From a virus (lineage: Duplodnaviria; Caudoviricetes), in the IMG/VR virus record IMGVR_UViG_3300012919_000008, positions 1 to 55,741 of that record: a stretch of DNA of 55,741 nt. The stretch is one strand, 5' to 3'. Shown piece after piece: positions 5,594 through 44,688 of this stretch (positions are counted from its first letter, which is position 1; every line of letters starts with the position of its first letter). The notes beneath the pieces were generated by a model. The model was not told the origin of the DNA. It saw only the letters and a list, made by a program, of their open reading frames with translations, and ran no database searches. The position numbers were made by a program, and so were the translations under genes.

Positions 5594-8017
5594 TTAACCA
5601 AATACCATCGCCATAGCGATAGCTTTACCTGTAGATGCTTTTGCATCAAGTTGAGTTTGTATTGCACTAGTTACTCCTGCTACATAATTTAGTTCAGCAG
5701 CAGTTGCTGATACATTAGTACCACCAATATCTAGAGTAGTCATTGAAACTTCTCCAGCAACAGTAAGAACACCATCAGCTAATGTCATTAAGTCGGTATC
5801 GTCTGTATGACCTATAGTTGTACCGTCAATTAATACATTATCAATATCTAAAGATCCACCTGATATAAGACCAGTGGTTGTAATAGTAGATGACCCAGTA
5901 TCTATATTACCAAAACCAGAAGTTATGCTACCAGAATCTAGAGCACCTGTTGTAACAATACCTGTACCACCTGCTATAGGACTAAAGAGAGATGTTACAT
6001 TAGTTCCCCCTATAGTTATAGCATCAGCCTCTACTGTACCATCAAAGAATGCATCTTTAAACTCTAGTGCATCTGTTCCTAAGTCTAATATTGCATTAGT
6101 ACCCGGTGTTAGTGCACCATCTGTTAATATTAGTTGTTTCTCATTACCTGCATAAAAGTTAATTGTATCAGCAGTTTCAAAGTCTATCTTAGTCTCATCA
6201 TCCTCACCTATCTTTATATCTGTTGCAAGTAATGATGTAATACCTGTCTGTGCTGCGTTGATAGTAAAGGTTAAGTCATAAGGGTCACCGTCTGATCCAT
6301 CTGAAGTATCTGTCCAATCAATATCAATACCACCACCTTCAACAAACTTAACTTCACTATCTTTTGTTATCTGTACTTCTGTACCATCACCATCTTCTAA
6401 AACAAACTGCATGTTAGCTGATTGTGAATCTACGTATGCTTTAATAGATTGCTGTGTAGCTAGTTTAGTTGCAGAGTTAGATGACATATCATCTTCATCA
6501 GCCACAGCAGTACCACTAACACCTGTGTTTAACACTGGACTTGTAAGTGTCTTATTAGTCAGTGTTTGTGTTGCTGTATCACCAACTAAGTTAGATGTAG
6601 TAGCTGGTAGTGTAAGAGTAACATTACCACCAAAAGCACTGTGAGCAGGAGCCTGTAACTGAGCATAATGAGCATTAGATACTTCACAGTAAAATCTAAC
6701 ATAACTTTGTGCTCCAGAGTTTTTAATTGATATACCACCTGATTGCATATCAATACCATTAGAGCCATCTATTCTAACAACACCTGTACCGTTTGGTGTT
6801 AGTGTAATATTACCATCTGATACAGAAACAATATCTTCACCATTTACATCAAGTGACCCACCCAACTGAGGTGTAGTATCTTCTACTACGTTAGCAATAC
6901 TAGCACCTGAAACAGCTAAACCAGATACTAATGTGCTTCTGGTAATTTTCTTTAGTCCACCACCAGAAGTATCTATAGCTAAAAATACATCGTCATTAGC
7001 TACGGTAGATATTTCACTTAGATCACCTACAGCAGTTGGATTAAAGTTTGTGCCATCTGCTATTAGTAACATACCAGAAGTGTTAGTACCCATAGTCAGG
7101 TCATCACCTGATATGGTTAAGTCACCTGCAATTGTAACATCTGCACCAGAGAATGTCAACGCTGTTGTTGTACCTGATTTAATAATTAAGTTACCAGAAC
7201 TGTTAGTCAATGCACCATACTGTGTGCCATCATCTTTTAGTAGTACATCTGCACCATTTGCATCAAGAACAACATCACCTGCTGTATCTATTATTAGATC
7301 GCCTGTATCGTTTACTATGTATGAGTTTGTACCACCATGATATAGATTAAGATCTTCACCTGCACCTATTGTAAGTCTACCTGTGGCACTGTCACCTGTA
7401 AGATCATCTGCATCAGCATCTACGTCTATCTTAACTAAACCACCTGATGTTATATTAGATGCACCATTATCAATGTTACCAAAGCCAGAAGTTATGCTAC
7501 CAGAATCTAATGCACCTGTAGTTACTAAATTAGGCATAGCTGTTATTTCATCATCAAGATATGCAGCTAATGTTTGCACAGTTGTTTGACGCATAGTTCC
7601 AGCATCATTTATAATTAAACCATCGCCATCTGCAATTGCTGTTGTGCCTACTGTACTATCACCGTCCATTAAATTTAATTCAGCACCTGTAGTTGTGATA
7701 GTTGTACCGTTTAAACTAATAGCATCTAAGTATGCCACACCATCTAAGTACAGATCTTTAAACTCCGATCCACTAGAGCCTATATCAAATGCATCATCTG
7801 TAGATGGTGTAATATTAGTTGCTGCTATAGTAAGCTGTTGTGCTGGTCCTAGTTTAGTTATAGCACCACCCTCTGCTGCTGTGCCGTCATGCGTATGCCC
7901 TGATGTACTAAAAGCAGTTACAATGGCATCAAACTCTCCATCAAAGTCAGATGCATTAATAATGTTACCATCGGCTATATTATTAGCAGTATCGTTACGT
8001 GTATATCCTGTTCCCAT
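5594..8017 (-). CDS. Tail fibre protein
   Basis: 807 aa rich in G/T/D/S, internal repeat VTTGALDSGSITSGFGNID, follows the tail tube genes. Confidence 0.75.
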   Translation of the reverse strand: MGTGYTRNDTANNIADGNIINASDFDGEFDAIVTAFSTSGHTHDGTAAEGGAITKLGPAQQLTIAATNITPSTDDAFDIGSSGSEFKDLYLDGVAYLDAISLNGTTITTTGAELNLMDGDSTVGTTAIADGDGLIINDAGTMRQTTVQTLAAYLDDEITAMPNLVTTGALDSGSITSGFGNIDNGASNITSGGLVKIDVDADADDLTGDSATGRLTIGAGEDLNLYHGGTNSYIVNDTGDLIIDTAGDVVLDANGADVLLKDDGTQYGALTNSSGNLIIKSGTTTALTFSGADVTIAGDLTISGDDLTMGTNTSGMLLIADGTNFNPTAVGDLSEISTVANDDVFLAIDTSGGGLKKITRSTLVSGLAVSGASIANVVEDTTPQLGGSLDVNGEDIVSVSDGNITLTPNGTGVVRIDGSNGIDMQSGGISIKNSGAQSYVRFYCEVSNAHYAQLQAPAHSAFGGNVTLTLPATTSNLVGDTATQTLTNKTLTSPVLNTGVSGTAVADEDDMSSNSATKLATQQSIKAYVDSQSANMQFVLEDGDGTEVQITKDSEVKFVEGGGIDIDWTDTSDGSDGDPYDLTFTINAAQTGITSLLATDIKIGEDDETKIDFETADTINFYAGNEKQLILTDGALTPGTNAILDLGTDALEFKDAFFDGTVEADAITIGGTNVTSLFSPIAGGTGIVTTGALDSGSITSGFGNIDTGSSTITTTGLISGGSLDIDNVLIDGTTIGHTDDTDLMTLADGVLTVAGEVSMTTLDIGGTNVSATAAELNYVAGVTSAIQTQLDAKASTGKAIAMAMVFG

Positions 8018-30266: not shown

Positions 30267-30443
30267 GTGCGTATCAAACCAATCAATCCAGTTGCACGTG
30301 AGATGGCGTACAATAGACCTCGCACTCAAATTGTAAAACCCAAAAAGGGAAAGGGGTCATACAGCAGGAAGAGGAACAAACATAATGATGCAGTCACAGT
30401 TGACATTTCAAAAGATGCCAGCAAAAAAGGTGGCACTTACTAA
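30267..30443 (+). CDS. ArfA-like small basic protein (58 aa, GTG start); absent from the ORF track
   Basis: GAGGAGG RBS; MRIKPINPVAREMAYNRPRTQIVKPKKGKGSYSRKRNKH... contains the ArfA signature KKGKGSYxRK. Confidence 0.6.
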   Translation: MRIKPINPVAREMAYNRPRTQIVKPKKGKGSYSRKRNKHNDAVTVDISKDASKKGGTY

Positions 30444-30534
30444 ACCAAAGAGAGGTGCATGGAAAGTAGAAAGGCGTAAGCAACGTAAGTTTAAATACAA
30501 CCAAAGGAGCATGGAATATTATGGTAGACACTGA
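30385..30534 (+). CDS. 49-aa basic peptide; absent from the ORF track
   Basis: GAGGA RBS; MMQSQLTFQKMPAKKVALTKPKRGAWKVERRKQRKFKY... Confidence 0.4.
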   Translation: MMQSQLTFQKMPAKKVALTKPKRGAWKVERRKQRKFKYNQRSMEYYGRH

Positions 30535-30787
30535 CATAGAGGACTTACTAAATTGGTGGTACAACAAGCCTGTCAATTGGGCTGGCACGTACAAGGAAGA
30601 CAGTGATGGTGTAGTCACACTCACTCTGTTTAAAAGACCAGCAGCGCGTAGCAAAGAGGAGAGTATAGATGACCAGCTGCAACGTGCTAGAGGTAGAGCA
30701 CCCAAGCAGGAGTATGGTGGGTACGATGGGCCTGACCCCACTACACATGGGGATTGGCAACACAATGGTAGGTGTACAGATTTTTGA
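30521..30787 (+). CDS. DUF1674 / SDHAF4 (Sdh8)-like protein
   Basis: C-terminus EYGGYDGPDPTTHGDWQHNGRCTDF matches the family signature ExGGxxGPEPTRYGDWExxGRCxDF. Confidence 0.7.
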   Translation: MVDTDIEDLLNWWYNKPVNWAGTYKEDSDGVVTLTLFKRPAARSKEESIDDQLQRARGRAPKQEYGGYDGPDPTTHGDWQHNGRCTDF

Positions 30788-30799
30788 GGGGGTGTATTT

Positions 30800-31237
30800 A
30801 TGTTAAGTGAAACCATACTTGCAGTAGGTGCTACGATCACGTGTCTTGCTCAGAACATTTACTTTGAGGCACGTGATCAACCTACCATAGGACAACGTGC
30901 AGTGGCAGAGGTGGTGTTGAACCGTGTGCATGATCCACGTTGGCCTGATACTGTGTGCGAGGTGATACGTGAAGGACCAACGTATAGTTGGAAGCAGGAC
31001 TACCCAATCAAACACAGGTGTCAGTTCAGTTGGTATTGTGATGGCCTATCAGATAAACCAAAGGACCAACGTGCGTGGTCAAAGGCTATTGCCATAGCAG
31101 AGGACGTATTCTTTTCATATGGCTTATCAATTAACACGGTGGACGGTGCTACCTTTTACCATGCCACTAACGTAGACCCGGAGTGGAGAAACGTAGAGTA
31201 CATAGTAACAATAGAAGATCATATATTTTATAGATAG
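30800..31237 (+). CDS. Cell wall hydrolase (SleB/Hydrolase_2 family)
   Basis: CLAQNIYFEARDQ...AVAEVVLNRV...CQFSW...HIFY. Confidence 0.88.
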   Translation: MLSETILAVGATITCLAQNIYFEARDQPTIGQRAVAEVVLNRVHDPRWPDTVCEVIREGPTYSWKQDYPIKHRCQFSWYCDGLSDKPKDQRAWSKAIAIAEDVFFSYGLSINTVDGATFYHATNVDPEWRNVEYIVTIEDHIFYR

Positions 31238-31246
31238 GATAATGAC

Positions 31247-36528: not shown

Positions 36529-37251
36529 ATGGTAAATATATTTAGACCCAAACCAGATGCAGAGGAACAGATCTTCTTTCCTTTTGGACCTGTTATGGGT
36601 TACAAGAGACTAAGTGCAAAGTTTGTAGCAGATATGAATGCACTCTTTGATAAAGACGTTGCATCTATGACAGACTACTCTGATCAGTTAGTTGGTAAGG
36701 TAAAGCAGGAGTTGTTCTTTACAGATGAGATGAGAGATACATTCTTGAATGAGATCAAACAGTTTGTAGGTAGCTACAATAACACAGCTACGATACGTAA
36801 CTCGTATGGACAGAACATGCTAGACACAGAGAAGAATAATTATTCTGTGCAGTTTATATCAGGTTGGATGGTGCGTCAGTTTGAGAACGACTACAACCCA
36901 TTGCACCTACACACAGGGTGTAGAATGTCATGTGTTGGCTATCTTAAACTGCCTGATGGCATTGACTCTGAATGGGAAGAGGACTACAAGGATCATCATC
37001 CTTCACATGGACACATACAGTTTGTACATGGCACTGCCAGCACATATAGTGCTACAAACTTTATGGTTAAGCCACAGGTGGGTGACTTCTATTTGTTTCC
37101 TAGTGAGTTGTTTCACTGTGTTTATCCGTTTAAAACTAAGGGTGAACGTAGATCCTTTAGTGTAAACTTTAACTTCCTTGAGATCCCAAAGAAAGTGGAG
37201 CAAGCAAATGATGGAACAGTTAAAGCATCTGTCGTTGGTCAAGAAGGGTGA
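36529..37251 (+). CDS. 2OG-Fe(II) oxygenase-like protein
   Basis: NPLHLH...SCVGYL...FPSELFHCVYP...RRSFSVN double-stranded beta-helix pattern. Confidence 0.7.
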   Translation: MVNIFRPKPDAEEQIFFPFGPVMGYKRLSAKFVADMNALFDKDVASMTDYSDQLVGKVKQELFFTDEMRDTFLNEIKQFVGSYNNTATIRNSYGQNMLDTEKNNYSVQFISGWMVRQFENDYNPLHLHTGCRMSCVGYLKLPDGIDSEWEEDYKDHHPSHGHIQFVHGTASTYSATNFMVKPQVGDFYLFPSELFHCVYPFKTKGERRSFSVNFNFLEIPKKVEQANDGTVKASVVGQEG

Positions 37252-37258
37252 CAGACAA

Positions 37259-39301
37259 GTGAAACTTACCTTAGACGTTGAGAACACAACTATAAAACGT
37301 AACGGTAAGTTACATCTAGATCCTTTTGAACCTGAGAATACACTGGTTATGGTGGGTATGTTAGATGATCACGGTAACGAAACAATAGTTACCTTTGATC
37401 ACAGTGAGGTGTCACCCACCACTGACGGACATAAGATAGTGCAGGATGCTTTGGATAAAGCTACTGTGCTGATAGGCCACAACATCAGTCACGATCTTGT
37501 GTGGTTATGGGAGTCAGGATTTAAATACTCTGGGGCTGTGTTTGATACTATGATGATGGAGTACATTATACAACGTGGCATCAAACAGCCACTGTCTCTT
37601 GAAGCATGTGCTGAGAGATACGAGCTAGAGACTAAGAAGCAGGACACCCTTAAGCAATACTTTAAGAAGGGTAAGTCTGTACGTGACATACCACATGCAG
37701 AGTTGTCAGAGTATCTTAGTGCTGACTTACATGCAACACAGCAATTGGCACATGAATTAAATATAAAATTTAATACTGCTAATGACGTAGGCTTAGATAG
37801 GATTAGGCAACTTACAAATAGAATGGTTGTGCTGTTATCTAAGATACACATGCGTGGATTTAAAGTAGATAGTGACGCACTAGAAGAGGTGCGTGTTACA
37901 TTTGAAGAAGAGAGAAAGGAGATAATAAAATACTTAGATGTTAAAGTAAGAGAACTTATGGGTGATGTGCCCATCAACTTGAGTAGTCCAGAACAGTTGT
38001 CTACTCTTATTTATAGTCGTAAGCCTAAGAATAAAACAGTGTGGATGAACGCACACGAACCTTATATGTCTGATGCAAGTTTCAAAGACTTGGTGCGTGA
38101 TGAGACTGACATAGTTTATAAGGCTAGTTTAAAGCAGTGTAAAACCTGCTATGGTTCAGGCAAAATAAGAAAGGTAAAGAAGGATGGCAATCCGTTTGCT
38201 AAAGAAACAAGATGTCCCACGTGTGGTGGTGACGGTTATCACGTTATTCCTACTAACACTATTGCTGGTCTAAAGTTTGTACCTCCTAGTGCTAAGTGGG
38301 CTACAGCTAGTGGCTTCTCCACCAACAAACGTAATCTTGAGCTACTAGCTAATGCTGCGAGAAGAAAAGATATGCCAGAGGCTCTTGAGTTTTTGGAGAA
38401 GGTGCAAAGGTTGTCTGCATTGGACACATATCTTTCTTCTTTTGTGGGTGGCATAAAGAATAATATTAAAGCTGACGGTATGCTACATGTTAAACTAAAC
38501 CAGCATATGACATCTACTGGAAGATTAAGCGGTAAAGAACCTAACATGCAGAACATGCCTAGAGGTGGTACGTTCCCTGTCAAACGTGTATTTGTATCAC
38601 GCTTTGATGGTGGGCATATCGTTGAGGCTGACTTTGCTCAACTAGAGTTTAGAGTCGCAGCTTTCTTGTCTCAAGACCCTGTTGCAATACAAGAAGTTAC
38701 AGAGGGTTTTGACGTTCATGCTTATACTGCTAAAGTTATATCTGATGCAGGGCAACCTATGAGTAGGCAGGAAGCTAAAGCACATACCTTTGCACCACTA
38801 TACGGTGCTAGTGGGTATGGTAGATCAGAGGCAGAGGCTACATACTATACTCACTTTAATGAGAAGTATGAGGGCATTGCAAGATGGCACAAGTCTCTTG
38901 CCAAAGAAGCACTTAACAATGGTAAAATTACTACTCCGTCAGGCAGGGAGTTTTCTTTTCCTGATGTGGTACGTAGTCCTAGAGGTAGAGTAAGTCACTT
39001 TACCCAAATCAAAAATTATCCTGTGCAGTCTTTTGCTACAGCAGATATAGTGCCGTTAGCTTTGTATTGGTTTGATATGATGCTACAACATCAGCAATCG
39101 TGCGTAGTAAATACAGTGCATGACAGTATTGTAATTGATGTTCATCCTGAAGAACACTATGAAGTTATTAGCACAGTAGAAGATGTCAACCATAATATTA
39201 CATGGCTAATACAGGAGCATTTAGGTGTAGACTTTAATGTTCCTCTATTATTAGAAGCAAAAATAGGTAATAATTGGCTTGACATGAAGGACGTTGCGTA
39301 G
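37259..39301 (+). CDS. polA: Family A DNA polymerase with DnaJ-type zinc-finger insertion
   Basis: Exonuclease LDVE/GHN; CKTCYGSG and CPTCGGDG; TGRLS, ADFAQLE, VHDS; probable GTG start at 37259. Confidence 0.93.
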   Translation: MKLTLDVENTTIKRNGKLHLDPFEPENTLVMVGMLDDHGNETIVTFDHSEVSPTTDGHKIVQDALDKATVLIGHNISHDLVWLWESGFKYSGAVFDTMMMEYIIQRGIKQPLSLEACAERYELETKKQDTLKQYFKKGKSVRDIPHAELSEYLSADLHATQQLAHELNIKFNTANDVGLDRIRQLTNRMVVLLSKIHMRGFKVDSDALEEVRVTFEEERKEIIKYLDVKVRELMGDVPINLSSPEQLSTLIYSRKPKNKTVWMNAHEPYMSDASFKDLVRDETDIVYKASLKQCKTCYGSGKIRKVKKDGNPFAKETRCPTCGGDGYHVIPTNTIAGLKFVPPSAKWATASGFSTNKRNLELLANAARRKDMPEALEFLEKVQRLSALDTYLSSFVGGIKNNIKADGMLHVKLNQHMTSTGRLSGKEPNMQNMPRGGTFPVKRVFVSRFDGGHIVEADFAQLEFRVAAFLSQDPVAIQEVTEGFDVHAYTAKVISDAGQPMSRQEAKAHTFAPLYGASGYGRSEAEATYYTHFNEKYEGIARWHKSLAKEALNNGKITTPSGREFSFPDVVRSPRGRVSHFTQIKNYPVQSFATADIVPLALYWFDMMLQHQQSCVVNTVHDSIVIDVHPEEHYEVISTVEDVNHNITWLIQEHLGVDFNVPLLLEAKIGNNWLDMKDVA

Positions 39302-44472: not shown

Positions 44473-44688
44473 ATGGGTATGAGAAGGAACTTAAATAAAA
44501 ACGATGCACCTCTGAAGATACAGTTTAAGAAAGGCTATCATGCATTTCAAAGAGGTGCTAAGTATACCAACCCATACAGGCATAACTCTATGCAATATAG
44601 AGAATGGGAGAGAGGCTATAACAAAGCCTACTTTGAGAATCTGAGAAAGGTAAAGTATGAAGAACAGCTTAGAACAGTCAGCAATTAA
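44473..44688 (+). CDS. Small protein with RMF-like pattern
   Basis: KGYHAFQRG....NPY.......REWERGY. Confidence 0.45.
   Translation: MGMRRNLNKNDAPLKIQFKKGYHAFQRGAKYTNPYRHNSMQYREWERGYNKAYFENLRKVKYEEQLRTVSN

Follow-up and report, generated by a model that had tools for sequence, protein, structure and literature searches.

The 88-residue product of a small gene in a marine phage ends in a tail of the DUF1674/SDHAF4 type. As judged from its sequence, the protein is a well-conserved, real variant of the DUF1674 family with an unusual carrier and an equally unusual modular history, for which a function is plausible. The window, i.e. the whole stretch of DNA that was analysed, is one entire virus record; it has 55,741 bases and a completeness rating of 100%. 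A preliminary description of this DNA had proposed a phage-encoded protein resembling succinate dehydrogenase assembly factor 4 (SDHAF4); the open reading frame is present as described there, the C-terminus of its translation being the identical EYGGYDGPDPTTHGDWQHNGRCTDF, and matches to Pfam and to PDB sequences establish that the tail is genuine. Complex II connects the TCA cycle with respiration, and SDHAF4 acts at the step in which SdhA and SdhB are joined; to our knowledge, the assembly of bacterial complex II and the role of bacterial DUF1674 proteins have barely been studied. The features of the gene and its surroundings are listed in Table 1.

Table 1. Features of the phage gene with the DUF1674/SDHAF4-type tail; positions are those of the window.
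Feature	Positions	Strand	Remarks
Whole gene	30521..30787	+	88 codons and a TGA stop
AGGAG ribosome-binding site	30505..30509	+	11 nt 5' of the ATG, read from the sequence
Phage-specific N-domain, residues 1-44	30521..30652	+	predicted helix 2-14 and beta-hairpin 20-26/32-38
Linker, residues 45-62	30653..30706	+	KEESIDDQLQRARGRAPK; predicted short helix 49-56; shared by long and short forms
DUF1674/SDHAF4 tail, residues 63-88	30707..30784	+	E64, GG, G70-P-D72-P-T, G77-D-W, G83-R-C, D87-F88
Codons 75-76, Thr-His	30743..30748	+	in place of the family's near-invariant Arg-Tyr/Phe
Segment of long alleles absent from short alleles	~30706..30787	+	about 82 nt: tail, stop and an adjoining base or two
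Cell-wall hydrolase gene	30800..31237	+	PHROG 938 endolysin, 7.3e-21

The preliminary description had made its assignment depend on a profile match, and such a match exists: residues 63-88 score 39.4 bits against Pfam PF07896 (DUF1674; E 7.7e-10; profile positions 25-50 of 50), the gathering cut-off being 23.5 bits, and the match is recovered again by a six-frame search of the virus record. A phmmer search of PDB sequences pairs these residues with human SDHAF4 (8dyd_C, also 8dye) at an E value of 2e-5, and residues 47-88 with RhR2 from Rhodobacter (2k5k_A) at an E value of 3.2e-4. Measured by these scores, the resemblance of the tail to DUF1674 far exceeds chance. The 39.4 bits compare with 54-61 bits for other viral tails (seven scanned) and with mostly 50-69 bits for bacterial DUF1674 tails. 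No PHROG family is matched by the 88-residue protein. The plus frame is coding, with a dN/dS of 0.10 over the whole gene (Nei-Gojobori, 7 loci); a 148-residue open reading frame that overlaps the gene on the minus strand (30394..30840) is rich in Ser and Leu, as an antisense artefact would be. Viral contigs may already bear automatic annotations of the type 'DUF1674 domain-containing protein', and a literature search for phages together with DUF1674 or SDHAF4, in which subscription journals lay mostly outside the coverage, found no paper on phage-borne DUF1674 tails.

The structural study of human SDHAF4 (PMC10784507) provides a frame for the individual residues of the tail. Free SDHAF4 is described there as intrinsically disordered, with its last 34 to 43 residues becoming ordered on SDHA. 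Residues D107 and F108 occupy the active site of SDHA against H407 and R451, D107 acting as a mimic of the dicarboxylate, and E84 and E92 contact SDHA R171; the E84N substitution abolished binding, and five of five C-terminal variants were unable to displace SDHAF2 (PMC10784507). The same source describes the terminal Asp-Phe as strictly conserved, reports that bound SDHAF4 blocks the substrate site of SDHA and conflicts sterically with the position of SDHB, and terms the bacterial DUF1674 proteins only 'putative homologs'; its main text makes no mention of contacts of R95 and Y96 (PMC10784507). In the gap-free alignment register, E64, D72, D87 and F88 of the phage protein correspond to E84, E92, D107 and F108 of the human protein. 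According to this alignment, the phage retains, or replaces conservatively, all four SDHAF4 residues whose importance for SDHA binding has been shown by mutagenesis. Residues 64-88 were modeled by AlphaFold2 with pLDDT values below 50, which fits disorder, though low confidence is no proof of it.

Two sets of tails were used for comparison with the family. Set 1 consists of 79 bacterial tails collected with a degenerate DNA pattern in which position 75 was left free, and Set 2 of 141 in-register tails among the best HMMER hits, a set biased towards phage-like tails. Position 75, which is Thr in the phage, is Arg in all 79 tails of Set 1 and in 136 of the 141 of Set 2. Position 76, His in the phage, is Tyr or Phe in 79 and 138 tails, respectively. 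The core P-x-P-T-R-[YF]-G-D-W with its invariant Arg is thus not found in the phage, which reads P-D-P-T-T-H-G-D-W and keeps the rest of the core. The other key residues conform to the family: Glu is found at position 64 in 139 of 141 Set 2 tails, and D72 is common (Glu in 89, Asp in 51 of 141). All 143 tail-only hits (among the best 150 of 209) end in D-F, and in the phage D87-F88 is directly followed by the TGA stop.

Among the matches listed, the closest cellular-type tail belongs to a protein from a Gammaproteobacteria MAG that is named by NCBI as a DUF1674 protein (P0032; GGYDGPDPT..GDWQHNGRCTDF), and only 4 of its 26 positions (63, 65, 75 and 76) depart from the phage tail. Because P0032 already has GDWQHNGRCTDF, most of the apparent divergence of the phage tail, including the E-to-Q change, came with the captured sequence. 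The distant long forms P0010 and P0022 retain Lys-Tyr at positions 75-76, indicating that the change of Arg-Tyr happened inside this phage clade. The preliminary description had taken both the RY-to-TH and the E-to-Q changes as possible signs of a mimic with altered activity. The former did arise within the phage clade; the latter is no novelty of the phage, as position 80 is Gln in 10 of the 141 cellular-type tails of Set 2, including P0032 (Glu in 131), and in 3 tails of Set 1 (Glu in 75). Four further tails, P0080, P0115, P0160 and P0037, also lack Arg75 (T, T, H and Q, respectively), and all four read GDWQH at positions 77-81; the P0037 cluster is named as a DUF1674 protein of Pseudomonadota MAGs. 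The loss of Arg75 is consequently rare, and not unique to this phage. Of the 79 pattern-selected bacterial tails, the most similar shares 19 of 26 residues with the phage tail, and the median is 15. Naming the donor of the tail from these was given up, 26 residues being too short for this, and P0032, which is closer, is a single MAG protein. A cellular origin of the tail is likely from these comparisons.

The preliminary description had also regarded the N-terminal half as unrelated, and this is borne out: residues 1-62 have no Pfam or PHROG match and exist without the tail in sister phages. The N-domain was modeled by AlphaFold2 on the family alignment with pLDDT values of 71-85. No related fold was recovered from the PDB at E ≤ 0.001, no usable hit was obtained in the protein atlas, and no longer, fused relatives of the N-domain were found among 94 candidates. 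In an HMMER search of 1.84 billion cluster representatives (E ≤ 0.001), the N-domain was matched by 7 of the best 150 of 209 hits. As far as detectable by such searches, relatives of the N-domain are confined to a small phage family. In the register of the PDB-sequence match, the linker aligns with residues 65-82 of human SDHAF4, which turn ordered on SDHA (PMC10784507). Residues 1-62 are an independent phage module that consists of the N-domain and a basic linker helix.

The modular history of the protein is apparent from its relatives. A search of 5.8 billion proteins returned 26 of them, of which 11 are long, 12 short and 3 fragment-like. The long forms have 88 residues with a PF07896 match and are 60-98% identical, whereas the short forms have 66-67 residues and end in ...ARGR.PR.D[VL]WC. 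In every long form the tail stands at the exact C-terminus and ends in D-F. In the DNA, conserved anchors are separated by 109 nt in six long loci and by 27 nt in three short ones. The loss of 82 nt removes the tail and the stop, and the short open reading frame therefore continues into the start region of the hydrolase gene, which in the short alleles starts at a GTG that overlaps the TAA of the upstream frame. A long (L007) and a short (L008) locus are 97.5% identical in the N-domain, while in another short locus (L009) the identity to the window amounts to 97.6% upstream of the gene and to only 85.8% in the N-domain. Such mosaic flanks, and the occurrence of both forms on near-identical backgrounds, point to recombination. 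Among the distant members, some stop natively just past the linker (P0028 with ...RRARGR, P0027 and P0029 with ...KARGRKGRNA(RR)), and the short P0029 shares an alternative N-domain with the long form P0022. We infer that the N-domain and linker are the older phage protein, to which a cellular DUF1674 3' end was added later by capture. The short forms ending in ...DVWC would be secondary deletions of the long form, because the linker is kept and termination is out of frame. A single slippage between two AGGAG repeats was discarded as the cause of the deletion, their spacing being 79 nt (counted by hand) and not 82 nt. None of the short-form contigs L008-L011, which are incomplete, is among the contigs with a canonical tail elsewhere, and the joint of the short allele is not listed in the two DNA runs examined. 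With respect to auxiliary metabolic genes (AMGs), variable presence among related phages is seen, and the tail is likely to be of cellular origin.

Selection was estimated by the Nei-Gojobori method on seven long-form loci, summed over 21 non-independent pairs. The dN/dS values are 0.13 for the N-domain, 0.08 for the linker and 0.07 for the tail, with a synonymous divergence in the tail of 0.37 per site. Amino-acid changes within the tail are restricted to codons 63, 74 and 75 in these loci, and codon 75 encodes T, M, I or L. The value of 0.07 implies that the tail is kept by strong purifying selection, while codon 75, which encodes Arg elsewhere, is now free to vary. Over 12 long forms, 16 of the 26 tail positions are invariant at overall identities down to 60%.

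The tail is not restricted to this phage family. Searching IMG/VR with a degenerate pattern of the canonical C-terminus yielded 34 stretches, of which 33 gave readable open reading frames; the pattern requires P-[ED]-P-T and misses variants such as that of L007, and the counts are consequently lower bounds. Five of the 33 frames belong to the protein family of the present phage. The largest group comprises 15 stand-alone proteins of 54-59 residues that start with MT[YK]WDGK, followed by five of 57-59 residues with GDKRRP...NYDRIF, three of 189 residues with Pfam NUDIX (58.6 bits) and DUF1674 (57.2 bits) matches, two of 53 residues, and single proteins of 97, 100 and 111 residues. The tail is thus carried in at least eight N-terminal contexts in these 33 frames of marine viral contigs, and PEPTR[YF]GDWE is kept in all 28 outside the present family. 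The NUDIX-DUF1674 proteins come from marine viral loci (L019:2425-2991(-), L020 and L044); NUDIX proteins of isolated phages match their N-terminal 70% only, and the tail is absent there. One of 44 viral loci (L034) holds a canonical tail gene together with a homologue of SdhB, which is 58% identical over 258 residues to a Puniceispirillum protein and contains the Fer2_3 and Fer4_17 domains. On this contig, the DUF1674 gene (59 residues; 1121-1300, +) and the SdhB homologue (6085-6837, -) lie about 5 kb apart; PhoH, a SoxY-SoxZ fusion and DUF932 are encoded beside the latter, and the contig also has a PD-(D/E)XK nuclease.

In bacteria, the DUF1674 gene stands immediately 5' of sdhCDAB in 20 of 80 loci, by title mostly from Gammaproteobacteria, so that the tail gene is associated with sdh in 20/80 bacterial loci vs 1/44 viral loci. 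No sdh-like sequence was found in the window by tblastn, and the window carries no Fe-S or other respiratory gene either. Of 101 genomes sampled from each class, 67 of the Alphaproteobacteria and 20 of the Gammaproteobacteria have a DUF1674, the latter count including the unpublished genome G146. Genomes of Puniceispirillum, Puniceispirillales, Planktomarina and Pelagibacteraceae each encode a canonical DUF1674 as well as an SdhA that exceeds the NCBIfam cut-off; such candidate hosts also hold paralogous flavoproteins that score below the cut-off of the SdhA model.

The clues to the host diverge: the nearest isolates infect Alphaproteobacteria, whereas the closest cellular tail is labelled gammaproteobacterial. 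Besides the family-A DNA polymerase and a DnaB-type helicase, the window encodes a large terminase, a portal, a major head protein, an integrase, a ribonucleotide reductase, a C5 methyltransferase and a cell-wall hydrolase, and no tRNA genes were found within its 55,741 bases. The DNA polymerase has 67% identity with its counterpart in Puniceispirillum phage HMO-2011, 64-65% with the enzymes of Roseobacter phages CRP-345 and CRP-1, and 43% with the one encoded by Pelagibacter phage HTVC033P. These identities place the window among the HMO-2011-type marine podoviruses; the hosts of all close isolates are marine Alphaproteobacteria. The polymerase gene (37178-39301, +) contains an insert of the DnaJ CXXCXGXG type (Pfam 6.8e-6), which is annotated in HMO-2011 gp12 as well. 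HMO-2011 has no annotated counterpart of the present gene 5' of its integrase. The 88-residue protein gave zero tblastn matches at E ≤ 1 across 50,697 phage records and the 56-residue type-2 viral tail protein none in isolated phages, an absence that carries little weight for short, Lys-rich queries with the low-complexity filter on; the 10 kb around the gene have no megablast match among isolated phages. A search for prophage copies by which a host could be assigned gave 75 pattern matches in genome contigs, none of which was confirmed. DNA of the window is also encountered in marine and marine-plankton metagenomes from several studies, and the 1.7-kb stretch examined is covered in each of its 30 bins by two DNA runs, which come from two further studies.

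The gene sits within a plus-strand early/replication block, 77 nt 3' of an ArfA-like open reading frame and 12 nt 5' of the hydrolase gene, a spacing that suggests co-transcription with both neighbours. The Pfam Hydrolase_2 match in this block (7.2e-22) is not tied to a named member in the output and is assigned here to the 30800..31237 frame. The hydrolase gene is itself variably present: in L004 (905 onward) the long-form gene is followed by unrelated sequence, and one metagenome contig links position 30785 to 31245 via 16 other letters and skips the hydrolase gene. The frame immediately upstream (58 residues; 30267-30443, +) scores 28.6 bits against Pfam ArfA, with a cut-off of 25.5; ArfA is the alternative ribosome-rescue factor A, and its carriage by a phage would be unusual. 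A 71-residue frame (44473-44688, +) has a weak match to Pfam RMF, the ribosome modulation factor (24.5 bits, below the cut-off of 27.9; E 2.9e-5). The two frames are hints, by similarity, that the phage may act on host ribosomes. Their use as markers of a gammaproteobacterial host was dropped as not borne out by genome sampling: ArfA scores above the cut-off in 1 of 101 sampled Alphaproteobacteria and 1 of 101 sampled Gammaproteobacteria, and RMF in 1 and 3 of 101, respectively. Two RNA-library runs contain a 208-nt contig at 30319-30526 and a 151-nt contig at 30776-30926, for which DNA carry-over is possible and which are no evidence of expression. In the RNA runs X20 and X21, short contigs match only the conserved G-D-W...D-F stretch (30748-30785) and continue in unlike sequence, which in one contig encodes a canonical ...GPEPTRF tail; they probably represent DUF1674 genes of other organisms in marine metatranscriptome libraries.

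Docking on free SdhA in the manner of SDHAF4 is, we infer, the best-supported step of a mechanism. We tentatively favour, with a confidence somewhat short of even, a helper function similar to that of SDHAF4, in which the tail would dock on SdhA and hand it over to SdhB, and respiration would be maintained during infection. The tail is expected to be disordered until it meets free, flavinylated host SdhA, and would then lie along SdhA with its terminal Asp-Phe in the dicarboxylate site, as human SDHAF4 does, covering the flavin and the surface later occupied by SdhB. New SdhA would be held safe and inactive and then be passed to SdhB, and the supply of complex II would continue in infection; this would constitute an accessory function in the maintenance of respiration, present in some members of the phage group only. 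The homology of the tail, the kept residues that were tested in SDHAF4, the purifying selection, the predicted disorder, the link of DUF1674 with sdh, and the native DUF1674 and standard SdhA of likely host groups are all consistent with such a helper, and its direction is favoured mainly because phages elsewhere pair the tail with sdhB. Against it stand the dispensability of the tail, short alleles being about as common as long ones (12 vs 11 of 26), the folded N-domain, for which cellular assembly factors have no counterpart, and the lack of an sdh gene in the window. A plain extra copy is moreover not obviously needed, because the candidate hosts own a DUF1674, and the mode or strength of binding may differ, because Arg-Tyr is lost and the score is 39 bits vs those of higher-scoring tails. 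A role as competitor or adaptor is kept in play by three points: Arg-Tyr is lost in this lineage, a folded domain has been added, and the host owns a copy. A prediction of the complex, computed with a Puniceispirillum SdhA alignment of 23 sequences, FAD and a phage alignment of 12, gave 0.01 against a mark of 0.32; it was run without controls and speaks neither for nor against docking.

The same docking could instead work against the host, the tail binding free SdhA without hand-over, competing with the host DUF1674 and trapping new SdhA. The dicarboxylate site would be plugged and the SdhB surface covered, which would lower complex II and redirect succinate/TCA flux. Because bound SDHAF4 occludes the site and clashes with SDHB (PMC10784507), a tail that releases poorly would be an inhibitor by construction; the near-invariant Arg-Tyr is lost, a folded N-domain absent from cellular factors is added, the candidate hosts already have a canonical copy, and no companion sdh gene is carried. 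However, newly made SdhA would be the only target, the surface being buried in assembled complex II, and shutdown would be slow within an infection cycle. Weaker binding is a simpler consequence of a lost contact residue than tighter binding, and the free variation of codon 75 (T/M/I/L) resembles relaxed constraint, not a tuned new contact. We consider this reading rather unlikely. Even less probable is that the tail acts as a portable label by which the N-domain, or in other phages Nudix or other cargo, is delivered to SdhA or to a flavoprotein of the same fold, such as FrdA (fumarate reductase) or NadB (L-aspartate oxidase), the real activity residing in the cargo. The variety of N-terminal contexts, with three Nudix fusions confirmed by Pfam, agrees with it, as do the self-standing N-domain and linker conserved in short-form phages, the reshuffling of N-domain and tail by recombination, and the paralogous flavoproteins of candidate hosts that match the SdhA model below its cut-off. 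Yet 20 of the 28 other viral tail frames are stand-alone, of 54-59 residues, near-cellular and with a short Lys-rich leader, which means that cargo is not needed; the N-domain has no recognisable activity or relatives, and nothing points to a target besides SdhA. Finally, the tail could be a recently captured fragment with little or no function that is being lost from the lineage. Presence and absence on near-identical backgrounds, as between L007 and L008, the loss of the invariant Arg-Tyr and the lowest Pfam score among the viral tails scanned would suit such a passenger, but its dN/dS at the given synonymous divergence, the 16 invariant positions, and the exact C-terminal placement with a D-F end in all long forms make it improbable.

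A broader view, which we hold to be speculative and rather doubtful, is that the 26-residue SDHAF4 tail serves marine phages as a portable plug for SdhA that is attached to unrelated proteins. In the present phage it would have been captured and then have lost Arg-Tyr, and would act as a competitor or adaptor at the SdhA active site rather than as a copy of the host factor; the polymorphism of long and short forms would be sustained by recombination and reflect an advantage that varies with host or environment. More generally, the sequence data suggest that the phage may interfere with host respiration. If phages repeatedly carry a tail that docks on SdhA, this would be independent evidence that the tail works in bacteria and, if true, would define a new class of host-takeover or host-maintenance functions in abundant marine phages. 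Near-identical genes that differ in whether they have the tail, and tails that differ in the invariant Arg, are natural matched controls, which makes the function directly testable.

A comparison with human SDHAF4 and yeast Sdh8 (8DYD, 8DYE) reveals that the last 26 residues align free of gaps and share E-x-G-G, G-P-[ED]-P-T, G-D-W, G-R-C and D-F. By contrast, Arg95-Tyr96 of human SDHAF4 are Thr-His in the phage, the human leader is disordered and non-conserved whereas the phage N-terminus is a small predicted folded domain, and the phage gene is viral, with the tail as an optional add-on in the lineage. The bacterial DUF1674 proteins, such as RhR2 (2K5K), are of a similar size class (seven examples, 44-70 residues), but have low-complexity leaders, keep Arg-Tyr/Phe, and are encoded beside sdh genes in a quarter of the loci (20/80), while the phage gene lies between the ArfA-like and hydrolase genes. 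Other viral DUF1674 tail genes in IMG/VR resemble the present one in that the tail is located at the extreme C-terminus of small phage proteins on marine contigs; they differ in the canonical PEPTR[YF]GDWE and in their N-termini, and one contig also has sdhB, soxYZ and phoH. With the AMGs of energy metabolism in phages, the gene shares a probable derivation from a host, a patchy distribution among close relatives and a marine phage as carrier; unlike these, it provides neither an enzyme nor a subunit, but a putative docking peptide of 26 residues on an existing phage protein.
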